Assembly (NCBI RefSeq): GCF_057098645.1
Contig: NZ_CM169472.1
DNA: 64,000 nt
Strand: one strand, 5' to 3'
Made by a program: the position numbers. Of the stretch, positions 21,001 through 27,000 are shown one piece after another (positions within the stretch are counted from its first letter, which is position 1; every line of letters begins with the position of its first letter).

Positions 21001-24000
21001 AATTTTCCCGCATGACACCCATTCTTCCGTCATTTCTCCGGCAGCATTACGGGTTAACACCGGGTTCAGAACACTTATCATCTGTGTCAGACGACCTGCA
21101 GATATTGCCATTCCTCCCTCCTCATAACACCGTCGGACAACGCAAATCGTAAATCAGAACAGATACAGAAAAGGGGAGTTCCCCCTGAATCAGCTCTTCC
21201 CGCTCCGCAAGATCCGGATTCCTGTACAGCATCCCGGTCAGGCGCATGGCAGCCCCCTTCATCCGGGTTAATGCCTCGCCCGGGATCAGTTCACCGTCCT
21301 CACGGATCACTTTATCCCGGCTGCCCTGAATGTAGGCCAGCAGCACGGCGGTAGCCTGACGAACCTTGTCCATCAGCATGTCATCATCCGCGTCATGGTC
21401 GACACGCAGATGTGCCTTGATCTCTTCCAGTGTCAGTAATGCCGTCATTTTCAGCCTCCTGCATCCCGCCCACGTTTTGCAGCCAGGGTCCAGGCTGATG
21501 AATGAGCTTCTCCGGGTTTATCTTCGGTCATACTGTTGCAGTGCCACAGCGAGCCCCCCCACGTCACCGTATCGCCGGGGTGGTAGGTTTCACCGGCTCT
21601 GAACACACCGCGGTAGAGCATCACCGGCAGGGAAAATGTTTTTTCCGTACACTGGCCACTGCTCTGCCGGATCACCACAGAGAACAACCGCTCATCCGTC
21701 ATGCTGACGTCGATATCCGCCACCCCGTCAACCAGGCATTCCCATCCCCGCATCCCGTGCGTTTTTTCATACGCCCGCCAGAGTCCACCCAGGTGTGTGG
21801 CATACGTGCCCCGGGGAAAGGATTTTTGAACGTCAATAGCGGGGAGCACTTCCAGTGCCGTGGCATCACGCCCGTCCTGCGGAGCCGGAAGGGCATTCAC
21901 CGCCTCCAGAACCGCCTGCTTCAGTACTTCCGGATCGTAATCACGACCGTCACTCGGAGCAGGGATATGGCTTACGGCCTCTTTCACCATCTGCTCAAGC
22001 ATCGGACGCACATCATCGGGGGTGATACTTTTGCCGTCCGCCGGTACCGGAATATTCGCAACCGCATCATTCACCGCCTGCTTCAGTACTTCCGGATCAT
22101 AATCACGACCATCACGCGGAACAGGAATATGGCTTACCGCCTCTTTCACCATCTGCTCAAGCATCGGACGCACATCATCGGGGGTAATACTTTTGCCGTC
22201 CGCCGGTACCGGAATATTCGCAACCGCATCATTCACCGCCTTCTGCAGAACATCCGGATCGTAGTCACGACCGTCGCGCGGAACAGGAATATGGCTCACT
22301 GCCTCTTTCACCATCTGCTCAATCATCGGACGCACATCATCGGGGGTGATACTTTTACCGTCCGCCGGTACCGGTATTTTCCCGACCGCATCATTCACCG
22401 CCTGCTGCAGTACATCCGGATCATAGTCACGACCATCACGCGGAACAGGGATATGGCTTGCTGCGTCCTTCACCATCTGCTCAAGCATCGGACGCACATC
22501 ATCACCCGTCACGCACTTCTGTAATACCACAGACTGAGAAGCCAGTTTTTCTTCAAACGTTTGTGCCTGCGCGGCTATTTTCTCCTCAAATGTACGCTGT
22601 AAATCCGCCAGCACCATGGCGAATTCTTCGCCCAGTGCACGAATAATGGACAGTTCCCGTTCCGTCATTTTCGCAGTATCCCCCTGAACATCGCTTTCAC
22701 CGCATCATGCTCTGTTTCACTGATTGCCTTATTACCGTCAGATGCGCCATCAGGCAGTTGTGCTGAGACTGTTTTCCCGGACGACGCGAACGGATCCTCA
22801 CGGGCATCACGACGGGACAGCGCCTCCAGACTGTAGTTCTGCTGCTGAAGATACAGTGCATCACCGCCGGCCAGGGGCGGCAGGTTCTCACGTTTACGGG
22901 CCTCATTGGGCGTCAGCAGCGTATTTTTCACCGACTCACCCAGCGTTTTCATGCGCCGTTCGCTGTCCATTCTCAGCAGCGTGGTGACGTCAAACTCCGT
23001 GCTCTCGTTTTCCCCCGTTTCCAGCGCCTCATCCAGTAACAGCTCAATGGACTCAATCAGCGTCTGCAGACACTGGGAATAATACTGCTGCTCCAGCGCC
23101 TCCACGTTATCACTGGAGGGAGGTTGTCCCACACCAATCTTGTAGGCCGGGACACGGAACACCGAACAGACAATTTCAGCGGTCATTTTCAGTTGTTCCA
23201 CCGTCTGCGCATCCACCGGTGAAAACGTCGTGGGGTTATATTTCGCCCCGTTGCTCAGAATCGCCGTTTTCCCCGCATTTTCGCCGGTATACCCGCTGTC
23301 CCAGTTGCTCTTCAGTTTTTTCGCATTTTCTTCCGTAATACTGCCGGGGATCTCAATCACCCCGGACGGCCTGCCGCCATTTCTGAAAAAAGACGTCGAA
23401 TTTTCCTGAATATGATGCCCCTGCGTGGCCGCCAGCCCGGCAGCATACACCGGCGGCAGCCCCACAAGCGGATGAAAAAAACAGTTAAACCGGTCGTGGA
23501 TCACTTCCCTGGCAGGCACCGTCACCGCCTCCGTGATCCCGCAGTTCCGGTCCGGTGTAATGCGATAGAACACCTCGCCGTCATCCGCCACCAGAGGTTC
23601 AACCCGGCTCCAGTCCAGAATACGCAGTTCTTTGATCTGCCCCCGGGAGTTACGGATTTTCAGCACCACCGTATTGCCGTGACGCAGTTTGGCGTTCAGC
23701 CACAGTTCAAAAAACTGGATACGATTCTGCTGTGCATTGGGACGACGACAGAGACGGGCAATATCCCCCTGCCGTTTTTCACGGCGGATCCCCTGTGTAT
23801 CCGTCTGCATCAGGCGCAGCCGCATTTTGGCGATATCCTGGGATATCAGCGAAATGCAAGAAAACACCGCATGAAAGGAGAGGACACTTTCCGGATCGGC
23901 TTTCACTCCCTGCTGCCAGGCACCGGCAAAAGGCTCAGCCACCGCCTGAAACAGGCTGGTCCAGCCCACCTCTTTTACATCACGTCCTGATTTCTGGTTT

Positions 24001-27000
24001 TTTCGGGGTCGCCGCAAAAGGTTCCACATTCGCCATGCTCCGCATCACGTTTCTTTTTCTGACCTGCCGGACGTCGCACTGTGATGTACTCCGCCTTCCC
24101 CAGGCGAACCAGCACCTCCGCACACGGCTGTGCCACATCACGGATATCCCCGGCCCGGGCATCATGCGTGCCCTGCAGATACTGGATTTTTGCCATCTGT
24201 TACTGCGGGAAGCTCGCGCCTCCCGCCCTCCTCATCAGACTCAGCCACCGGACGCAGTTCCGTAGTTCACACCGGTGATCACCGCCACCGCCGCGGTACG
24301 GCGACGACGCCAGTTGATCCAGCGCTCCGCACGGATGGCCACGCTGCCGGTCTGAAACATGGAGACCAGTTCCACCGGTGACGGTGTGCTGCTGTCGCTG
24401 GTCGGTTCAGACTGCATCTCCAGTGACGCTTCACGGGACATATCCACCGCCACACCGCCGTCATCAGCCAGATAAATATCCGGCGCATTCACCAGTACCA
24501 GCTGGTCACCCACATACTGGGAGACAATCACCGGCAGCCCCTGGAAGGTCCCGCCCAGCAGGGTCATGTCCGGATATTCCTTCTGCCCCAGCGCATTTTT
24601 ACGCATGGACAGCGCCAGGGCATTCGTGCTGGACATCAGCCAGACCGCACCGGTGGGCTGCAGATTTGCCGTCACAAACTGGCCAAACGCGGCCTCGGCA
24701 TCCGCATCCGGGTTACCGGTTGATGCCGTGCCCTTCACATCATGGGTGATGGACGCCGGGGAGACATCCGCCACCGCCGCTTTTTTCGGGTCCACAAAGT
24801 CTGTGTCCAGACGCGCCACCACCGCTTCTGCCAGCGCATTACGGACCAGTGCATCAGCTGCCGGACTGGAAAAGCGGATCAGCTCTTCCGTCAGTACCGC
24901 AATGGCCGACACCTTCGCATGACTGAAGGTGATGGACTCAAAATCAAACTTCGTCAGGGGTCTGGCCTTACCCTCCCCCACCCAGCCGGCAGCACCGCCG
25001 GACACCTGGGCATGCACGCGGATATTGAACGGCACCAGACGAAGTGCAGGGATCCCGCCCTGACCAAATCGCCCGATAATGGTCTGCGGACGCAGGTAAT
25101 CAATAAAGTCCTGCGCATATTCCTGATATTCAGACAGGCTGCCTGCCCACTGTGGGTCCGTGGTGGTCCCTGCCCCCACCGCCGATTTCAGGACATGATG
25201 CAGACGGCTGTCATCCGGATACTGACGACGGGCCACTTCCAGGGCTTCGGAGCGGACACCTTTAGCCGCGGCCAGTGATTTGGCAAAGCGGGCGAAACCA
25301 ATCCCCTTCTCCAGTTTCTGCTCAACACGGATCACCGGCGCTGAAGCCACCGTGGCCACATTCCCGTTACCGGCCTGTTTCACCGGCTGTGCCGTGGCGG
25401 CCTTACCGGCTTCCAGTTCACGCAGACGCTTCAGGTGCGCATCCACCTGACGGATTTCCGCTGCGGTGTTGTCGTAGTGCTCTTCCTCTTCCACATCCAG
25501 TGTGCGGCCTTCCTCTGCGGCTTTGTTCATGATCTCCTCAAGGGAGGCTGCCAGCGCCGCACGCTTGTTTTCAAAACTTTTAATCTGTTCACCAGTATTC
25601 ATTGCTGACTTTTCCTTATGAAAAGAGGTTATTGACTGTGCCGAAGCGCCGGCAGAAGATGCGATTTTCACCACCGGTCTCCGGTTGCCGGACGCGGCAG
25701 AAAACGGGCTGCCGAAAGATTTAATGGTCCGGATGGTGCATTCCGCATTCGCGGGCACGGTGACGGCAGACACCTCCATCAGCTCCCAGCGCAGAAAATG
25801 CAGTCCGCCTCCGTCCAGATAAGTGTATTCATGGGGCCGGAAGCCCACAGAAAGCCCCCTGACCAGCCCGGTCTTAATGGCAGCCCAGGCCTCATCCAGC
25901 CGGGCTGCCATCTGGGAGGGCATCCCCGGCTCCGGCTTCACCAGCATTGCCGTGATTTCCAGCCCTTCCCTGCCCCGACGCACCGTACACTGGCCTACAG
26001 GGCGGGAATGGTCATGCTGCCAGAGAAACGGGATCGTACTGCCAAACTCCGCCCCCTCCGGCTCCAGGATGTCACCATCCCGATCCGGAGAAGGCGTTGA
26101 CGCAATCCCGGTGATCACCCGTTCATCCTCACTGAAGGATTTCACCGTCAGCAGGGAACAGGCCCGTTTAAGAGTCACATCAGCCTCCTGAAAATAAAAA
26201 AACCGCCGCAGCGGTTCATGATGGTTACAGGGTGAGCAGGGTTATATGAAAAAAACCTCATACGCTTTCTTTTTCGGTTCCGGATTCAGGGACATCAGGG
26301 ACACCGCATTGAAGAGCGCCATCAGAGGGTCAATTTTTCCCCGTCCGCTGGCCTGTTTGGTGATAAGAATGGCGTTACCTTTAGGCTCCACCCGGGCATT
26401 GCCAACGCACCAGGCCATCAGTGGCTGACCACCATGCACCAGCACTCCCTCAGCCAGTTTGCGCTCGGTGGTTTTGATGGCCCCGCCCAGTTTCCAGCCC
26501 TGGCTTATCCCCACCACACTCTCATCGGGGATCCCGGCTTCCGCCAGTGAATCCAGAATCTGCCCCACACCTGACGGGTCAATACCGATATGATCCAGTA
26601 ACTCAGCCTCATGAATACGACGCACATACTCCGCCACTTCCGCCGTGTCATCCCCGACCCGACGGACAATCGTCATGTCTCCACAGGCCACAAAATCCTG
26701 AAACCGGGATGCCTCACTCTTCCGTCTGACCACCGCGGTTTCATGCACCCAGGCATGGCCCCAGCCCAGCCATTCGCGGGTTTCCCTGTCACGGCCAGTC
26801 ACGTACATTCCCAGCAGATCATCCAGGCCCCCGCCGTCAATCCCCACCGTCACCACATCAGCGCGCTGCAGGATATCGTCCAGGCTGACGCGCCTGCCCT
26901 GCTGCTCCCAGAAATCCGCCCCTGCCCAGCGGTCAGAACGCAGGGCAAGACCGATTTCCACATTGGCGTGTTTTGACATGAAACCGCGGAAAGTCTCTTC

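Follow-up and report, generated by a model that had tools for sequence, protein, structure and literature searches.

A prohead protease–capsid fusion gene ahead of the portal in a prophage head module, with a conserved candidate internal start

In a 64,000-nucleotide (nt) stretch of DNA (NCBI RefSeq assembly GCF_057098645.1, contig NZ_CM169472.1; the window, meaning this whole stretch), the head module of a prophage lies on the minus strand and contains one 645-amino-acid (aa) open reading frame (ORF; 24241–26178, GTG start) in which a prohead protease is joined to an HK97-fold capsid protein. This fused gene sits between the gene for the terminase large subunit (TerL; 26242–27903) and that for the portal protein (22665–24029). 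Our results suggest that it also holds a second, in-frame translation start, from which a protease-free capsid protein would be made. The region is, with high confidence, the head-assembly core of a lambdoid, long-tailed prophage of the type found in Shiga toxin-producing Escherichia coli (STEC), and belongs to a phage lineage in which, by comparison of sequences, the order of head genes is very probably (HNH)–TerS–TerL–[hairpin]–protease–capsid–small DUF7210 gene–portal–fibre-like protein–gp6 connector, where TerS is the terminase small subunit.

Architecture of the fused protease–capsid protein

Both ends of the 645-aa ORF matched curated families. Peptidase_S78 (PF04586) matched residues 48–153 (33.9 bits, cut-off 21) and Phage_capsid (PF05065) residues 386–635 (55.4 bits, cut-off 24.2), and the HK97 major capsid model TIGR01554 (major_cap_HK97) scored 80.5 bits (cut-off 27.5) with coverage from residue 204; the protease model TIGR01543 reached 45.4, under its equivalog cut-off of 59. 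The profile phrog_617 spanned residues 1–639, including both domains, over its full length (E 1e-257). Aligning the N-terminal domain to HK97 gp4 with hhalign gave a probability of 96.9% (E 1.6e-10) and placed His65 and Ser114 of gp4 on His55 (26016–26014) and Ser110 (25851–25849) of the fused protein, both of which were invariant among 35 diverse homologues. The alignment of the fused protein to HK97 gp5 was not significant alone (probability 0.6%), and the capsid assignment rests on the Pfam, TIGRFAM and fold matches rather than on a gp5 profile alignment.

An AlphaFold2 model of the fused protein, built on 35 diverse homologues, divides it into regions that agree with these matches. Residues 1–142 (25753–26178) form a β-rich protease domain with a predicted local distance difference test (pLDDT) score of about 70–87. 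The linker, residues 143–192 (25603–25752), is predicted to be disordered, with pLDDT below 50 across residues 143–191, and its alignment columns are variable and gap-rich. Residues 193–264 (25387–25602) contain a two-helix hairpin at residues 195–261 (helices 195–223 and 229–261; pLDDT 82–89) that resembles a scaffold-like delta domain, and unfused capsid proteins of relatives begin precisely at Met193; a second, short disordered stretch (residues 265–283) separates it from the folded capsid body of residues 293–645 (24244–25302). Foldseek matched this body to the capsid proteins of Bxb1, D3 and HK97 in the PDB with E values of 4e-13 to 1e-9 and TM-scores of up to 0.74, normalised to the target. 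A PDB search by sequence with the fused protein gave only a marginal match to the Bxb1 capsid (E 0.0028), so the protein has no solved close relative. Together, the AlphaFold2 regions, the fold matches and the gp4 alignment with its catalytic residues support an architecture, as modelled, of protease, linker, delta (scaffold) domain and capsid protein. The fused protein falls outside the family of NCBIfam model NF045541 ('prohead protease/major capsid protein fusion protein'), whose cut-off is 525 bits: it scored 51.9 bits and matched over residues 91–269 only.

The original prediction had proposed, from the DNA alone, that protease and capsid protein are fused in one ORF lying between TerL and the portal gene. 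This is borne out, as both domain families match within 24241–26178 and as Pfam and NCBIfam agree on the capsid and portal proteins, above the curated thresholds. Domain annotation did not find the reverse assignment, with the portal at 24241–26178 and the capsid protein at 22665–24029; because the capsid and portal genes are not swapped, the observation stands where it was first made.

How widely the two domains occur in one protein was surveyed by exhaustive search of 50%-identity clusters, taking the query and its best 150 representatives (151 sequences). Fused proteins made up 143 of the 151 (the query and 142 representatives spanning both domains), with lengths of 615–1094 aa, most of them 630–680 aa, and the 142 representatives were 38–53% identical to the window protein. 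The fusion is an ancient one with diverse members. Closer homologues of about 644–648 aa, at 72–76% identity, occur in Salmonella, Enterobacter, Klebsiella, Serratia, Kosakonia and Pantoea. The few capsid-only matches begin at the residue aligned to Met193 of the window protein. Every unfused capsid protein had fused proteins as its nearest neighbours (for example, at 64% identity to P0138, or 60% to P0126 and PAJU2), which implies from these sequences that fusion or fission of the protease and capsid genes has happened repeatedly.

A candidate internal start at the delta domain

The structured delta domain starts with Met193, whose in-frame ATG (25602–25600) would begin a 453-aa delta-capsid protein ending at 24241. 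It is preceded by a Shine–Dalgarno (SD)-like AAGGA (25617–25613) at a spacing of 10 nt with a predicted duplex energy of −6.2 kcal/mol, so that the candidate start as a whole occupies 25600–25617 on the minus strand. Met193 is kept in 108 of the 142 fused representatives, most of the others having Met or Val 1–3 residues away, and the 50 residues before it are variable and gap-rich in the alignment. At the DNA level, 64 unique junctions had ATG at this position in 62 cases and GTG in the remaining 2.

We compared the duplex energy with the anti-SD sequence over the 20 nt upstream of each junction start with that at 858 other in-frame ATGs. Energies of −5.4 kcal/mol or lower were found at 84% of junctions and 16% of control ATGs, and energies of −9 or lower at 37.5% and 0.6%, respectively (Mann–Whitney p about 2e-25). 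The junctions show a purine peak at −12 to −8 upstream of the ATG, with G at −9 in 48 of 64. This SD-like motif persists under different peptides (K-E-K, K-G-N, P-E-E-G and P-Q-E-G) and in different codon phases (AAG GAA, AAA GGA, CCC GAG GAG GGC and CCC CAG GAG GGC), and the rare glycine codon GGA accounts for 47.5% of glycine codons at the site compared with 6.8% elsewhere in the same ORFs. The true capsid starts of unfused relatives have the same N terminus (M-x-x-x-E-Q/K-I) and the same motif, with energies of −5.6 to −6.4 kcal/mol.

Given these start signals, we think it reasonably probable that the fused gene is a nested two-product gene, producing both the full-length protein and a delta-capsid protein from Met193. 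An internal start that stayed functional would, as part of the same reading and with the same degree of confidence, let the lineage switch freely between fused and split genes, which would account for the interleaving of fused and unfused relatives.

We infer the making of both products, the site of cleavage and the order of assembly as follows, this being in our view the likeliest mechanism. Translation from the GTG at 26178 would yield the full-length protease–linker–delta-capsid protein, and translation from the conserved internal SD and the ATG at 25602 would yield the protease-free delta-capsid protein. Through their common capsid body the two could co-assemble around the portal, with the delta domains and tethered protease domains pointing into the procapsid interior. 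The full-length form would be the minor product, serving as a covalently tethered carrier of protease into the procapsid, and the delta-capsid form the major one. The His55/Ser110 protease would then cut away the delta domains together with the linker and itself, the cut probably falling in the disordered stretch around residues 262–292. A mature capsid protein of about 350–380 aa would be left, and DNA would be packaged by TerS and TerL.

Several points weigh against this two-product model and the wider account of the module. The internal SD (−6.2 kcal/mol) is weaker than the CAGGAGG of the primary start (−10.3 kcal/mol). The p-value overstates the independence of the junction sequences, because they are related by descent. 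Use of the internal start is deduced from signals in the sequence. By a rough, uncomputed estimate, a capsid of triangulation number T=7 could, as a procapsid, hold one protease per subunit, and stoichiometry therefore does not force a second product. Finally, we found no reason for the permuted gene order.

The main alternative is that the gene encodes a single polyprotein, each capsid subunit arriving with its own protease, and that the internal ATG and SD are a relic or are kept for a reason other than initiation. Such a polyprotein would fit the strong SD at the primary start in enterobacterial loci and the actinobacteriophage clusters in which protease–scaffold–capsid fusions, in the canonical position after the portal, have been described with no mention of a second product; repeated recent fusions could moreover leave relic start signals. 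Against this, the ATG and purine motif persist to 40% identity despite complete turnover of the linker in sequence and length, the excess of GGA codons indicates selection on nucleotides rather than amino acids, and the site is indistinguishable from the real capsid-gene starts of unfused relatives. We regard the single polyprotein as a possible explanation that merits limited credence. The 645-aa ORF might instead be artefactual, either a pseudogene with a frameshift or two genes joined by sequencing error, as the separate protease and capsid genes of some close relatives could lead one to suspect. This is extremely improbable: full-length homologues of 640–650 aa, at 72–99% identity, occur across many genera in independent assemblies that number in the thousands (a single 90%-identity cluster alone has 9,916 member sequences), divergent 50%-identity clusters number at least 140, and the ORF is present in inducible phages (BP-4795 and YYZ-2008) and isolated phages (FSL SP-016 and PAJU2).

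The primary start has features of its own. In the E. coli clade the GTG of the fused gene follows the CAGGAGG and is overlapped by an out-of-frame ATG–TGA mini-ORF (ctgATGTGAct; 26176–26195, minus strand), and nearly all non-E. coli relatives examined start the fused gene with ATG. The GTG and mini-ORF could, as read from the sequence, lower full-length output relative to the internal start.

In the literature on gene order, fusion and internal starts we found only general mentions of protease–capsid fusions, among them fusions in thaumarchaeal proviruses, and the paper on Ab31 contains nothing about head genes; a published capsid tree takes in the Stx phages discussed here and PAJU2. What is new is probably the retention, as the start signals suggest, of the ancestral capsid start as an internal start within the fused gene, the fusion itself being known. 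If the internal start is used, the family would lend itself, as a simple natural system, to work on what determines the dose of protease in procapsids.

Gene order and neighbouring genes of the head module

To place the module in its lineage, we searched 87 loci (80 from IMG/VR) with the window proteins and detected both capsid and portal genes in 83. In all 83 the genes ran from TerL through protease/capsid to the portal gene, which was downstream of the capsid gene, over a range of 39–100% identity. TerL varied widely among the related loci, with tblastn identities from 21–25% up to 84%. A Serratia prophage has the order HNH, TerS, TerL, fusion, gap, portal, 300-aa protein and connector. In Burkholderia phage vB_FKKS2 and Moraxella phage Mcat6 the order is TerL, protease, capsid, small ORF and portal, with separate protease and capsid genes, and two metagenomic relatives with unfused protease and capsid genes also keep the capsid gene before the portal gene, as do cultured phages of Pseudomonas, Burkholderia, Moraxella and Salmonella. 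With the same order throughout the related loci, the permuted arrangement is, on this sequence comparison, an old and stable property of a large phage lineage of Gamma- and Betaproteobacteria.

The original prediction had called the order unusual and left open whether it marked a distinct head-module lineage or a local rearrangement. Of these two, the lineage is upheld. A rearrangement confined to this prophage or strain is conceivable in view of two insertion sequence (IS) elements in the prophage, but has next to no probability: the same order recurs in every one of the 83 related loci, with cultured phages of four other genera among them, and neither IS element falls within the TerL–portal interval. 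'Unusual' holds only in relation to the textbook order of HK97 (TerL–portal–protease–capsid); in databases the arrangement is common. The 6.5-kb block is 96–97% identical in DNA to published Stx1a, Stx2c, Stx2a and PPompW prophages, 775 complete E. coli genomes cover at least 80% of a 12-kb query around the module, and Stx phage records already label the fused gene 'major head protein/prohead protease'. The capsid-before-portal layout and the fusion are thus already known: prophages of the Stx1a, Stx2c and PPompW types have this head module as standard, and the fusion is present and named in public records. The capsid-before-portal finding as given changes nothing by itself. The 'universal' order TerL–portal–protease–capsid nevertheless has a large, stable exception in Gamma- and Betaproteobacteria, which matters for synteny-based annotation of phages.

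Upstream of the fused gene, all on the minus strand unless stated, are an HNH endonuclease gene (30205–30570; Pfam HNH, E 7e-07), the usual partner of HK97-type cos terminases; an ORF for the transposase of ISEc20 (IS110-like; 28969–30165, plus strand), identified from the NCBI Prokaryotic Genome Annotation Pipeline (PGAP) annotation of a near-identical locus (L092); TerS (27900–28463; Pfam Terminase_2, 35.7 bits, cut-off 26.1); and TerL, matched by Pfam TerL_ATPase and TerL_nuclease. The HNH gene upstream of TerS is also found in related loci.

Directly ahead of the fused gene's ribosome-binding site, a pattern scan found a terminator-like hairpin (GAACCGC-TGCG-GCGGTTT) followed by a T-run (26217–26190, minus strand). 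Enterobacterial and Pseudomonas-type loci keep the hairpin through compensatory changes in its stem, and HK97 has a putative terminator annotated at the equivalent place, just upstream of its protease gene gp4. An Rfam scan of 20000–31000 returned two sub-threshold chance matches only, and the hairpin is therefore not a described RNA family. The conservation of this arrangement suggests a single expression cassette of hairpin, protease and capsid, placed differently with respect to the portal in different lineages. In one unfused relative (L088) the hairpin lies between the protease and capsid genes instead.

The 73-aa ORF at the junction of capsid and portal genes (23975–24196), which had been noted at the outset, proved to be a real conserved gene (phrog_829, E 1e-38) that abuts and overlaps the start of the portal gene. 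Its Serratia homologue has 56 aa and ends at the portal start, and an iterative hidden Markov model links small ORFs in the same position across 63 loci. Pfam DUF7210 was matched by 12 of 29 members of this family (best E 7e-07), with no match to the 73-aa protein of the window itself at E < 1. Members of the family have a roughly 40-aa β–β–α–β domain in AlphaFold2 models (pLDDT 80–89), followed by a linker that varies and, at the C terminus, a basic peptide that often reads K-R-x-Y-R-R-R-D-M-x-A-E. In the E. coli ORF the stop codon is gone, with GAA where we infer that relatives have TGA, and the frame continues for 55 nt inside the portal ORF. Its constant position beside the portal gene and apparent translational coupling suggest a portal-associated role. 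In Foldseek searches, all listed matches of the small protein with E < 2 except 3anw_B were ribosomal protein L9 chains, mostly the N-terminal domain, with a root-mean-square deviation of 1.1–1.7 Å over 40 residues and E 0.13; the profile comparison gave P 0.0075 and a probability of 5%, and there was no Pfam Ribosomal_L9_N match. With these values we keep the modelled L9-like fold as a lead only.

The 454-aa portal protein belongs to the HK97 family (Pfam Phage_portal, PF04860, E 4e-81, 273 bits, cut-off 39.1; TIGR01537 portal_HK97, 355.9 bits, cut-off 112). Its stop codon overlaps the start of the next gene as ATGA in all loci (junction at 22650–22700, minus strand). PGAP calls the portal 'frameshifted' and treats it and the next protein as one 'portal'; for the protease–capsid fusion its product name mentions the capsid alone. 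PHROG 2271 represents a joined 'portal' of 859 aa. In one locus (L010) a run of six G residues replaces the usual five, 15 nt upstream of the ATGA junction, and the extra base appears to join the frames into the 859-aa form. Because the ATGA overlap occurs in all relatives and the joined form seems to trace to this G6 run, the 'frameshift' call looks like an annotation artefact.

The gene that follows encodes a 405-aa protein (21451–22668) with a 162-nt (54-aa) tandem repeat of 3.7 copies at 91% identity (21911–22503); its C-terminal part gives a CBM_5_12-like match below threshold. In most loci of the lineage the gene after the portal encodes a homologue, which several records mislabel as 'portal protein', and in one relative collagen-like repeats occupy the corresponding place. 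The 405-aa protein is probably a fibrous head or neck appendage. It is followed by a gp6-like head–tail connector (21122–21448; Pfam Phage_connect_1, 32.3 bits, cut-off 21.2).

Crosslink residues and comparison with known systems

The residues K406, N611 and E618, nearly invariant in the family, fall on the HK97 gp5 residues K169, N356 and E363, in a gp5 alignment that is itself weak. The window protein does not have this Lys/Asn/Glu chainmail triad: its codons 406, 611 and 618 (24963–24961, 24348–24346 and 24327–24325) encode R, G and E, so that two of the three crosslink residues are lost. Of the 151 representatives, 124 have the K/N/E triad, as do 107 of 120 clusters of close homologues. 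These 107 are all 72–76% identical to the window protein, and the named ones belong to genera other than that of E. coli. Members of the E. coli STEC clade all have R/G/E or K/G/E. Judging by these residues, the capsids of the E. coli phages probably no longer form chainmail crosslinks, and their comparison with Salmonella and Serratia relatives that retain K/N/E offers a natural test of capsid stability without chainmail.

The closest systems are the STEC prophages and phages (Stx1a, Stx2c, PPompW, BP-4795, YYZ-2008, Stx2a_WGPS2 and WGPS8), which have the same genes in the same order, the DNA identity given above over 6.5 kb, and a fused protein 94–99.5% identical to that of the window. The window copy differs from them by two insertions: ISEc20, between the HNH gene and TerS, and an element of the IS21 family that interrupts the tape-measure gene. 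The latter (15745–18382, 2.6 kb) lies 81–86 nt into that gene by comparison with a near-identical prophage, its alignment blocks overlapping by about 6 bp at the junction, and contains IstA- and IstB-like ORFs (15868–17514 and 17288–18286); from this interruption the prophage is probably tail-defective. The ISEc20 insertion is held in common with at least two other E. coli genomes (2013C-3264 and USDA5905) and is absent from most relatives.

PAJU2 (AP009624) is similar over a greater distance. Its ORF003, annotated as 'prohead protease fused capsid protein', is 48% identical to the window protein over the full length, and ORF002–ORF008 comprise TerS, TerL, the fusion, small ORFs, portal, a roughly 330-aa protein and connectors. 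The same internal ATG and a strong SD are found at its junction (L005/L046; CAGGAGGG). PAJU2 differs in its pair of small ORFs (114 and 72 aa) where the window has a single one between capsid and portal, the 72-aa ORF falling in another PHROG (4810); in apparently keeping the K/N/E triad, judging from the counts of that motif; and in its host and the rest of its genome.

HK97 itself resembles the module in its HK97-family portal, its S78 protease, which shares the catalytic His and Ser, its capsid protein with an N-terminal delta domain, its gp6-type connector and the terminator-like hairpin before the protease–capsid cassette. Unlike the window, it has the order TerL–portal–protease–capsid with separate protease and capsid genes, has neither a DUF7210 gene nor a fibre-like protein after the portal, and has K169, N356 and E363 where the window has R406, G611 and E618. 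The actinobacteriophage fusions likewise unite protease, scaffold and capsid protein in one polypeptide, but their fusion gene follows the portal, and the window protein lies outside NF045541.

In the lambda C/Nu3 and herpesvirus UL26/UL26.5 systems, a long, protease-bearing product is accompanied by a shorter, more abundant one from an internal in-frame start; the two share their C-terminal part, and a few copies of the protease are thereby delivered into the procapsid. The long and short nested products proposed for the fused gene would, by analogy, follow the same plan. The systems differ in the shared part, which is scaffold in lambda and herpesviruses and would be scaffold plus capsid protein here, and in that the products of the fused gene are deduced only from signals in its DNA.

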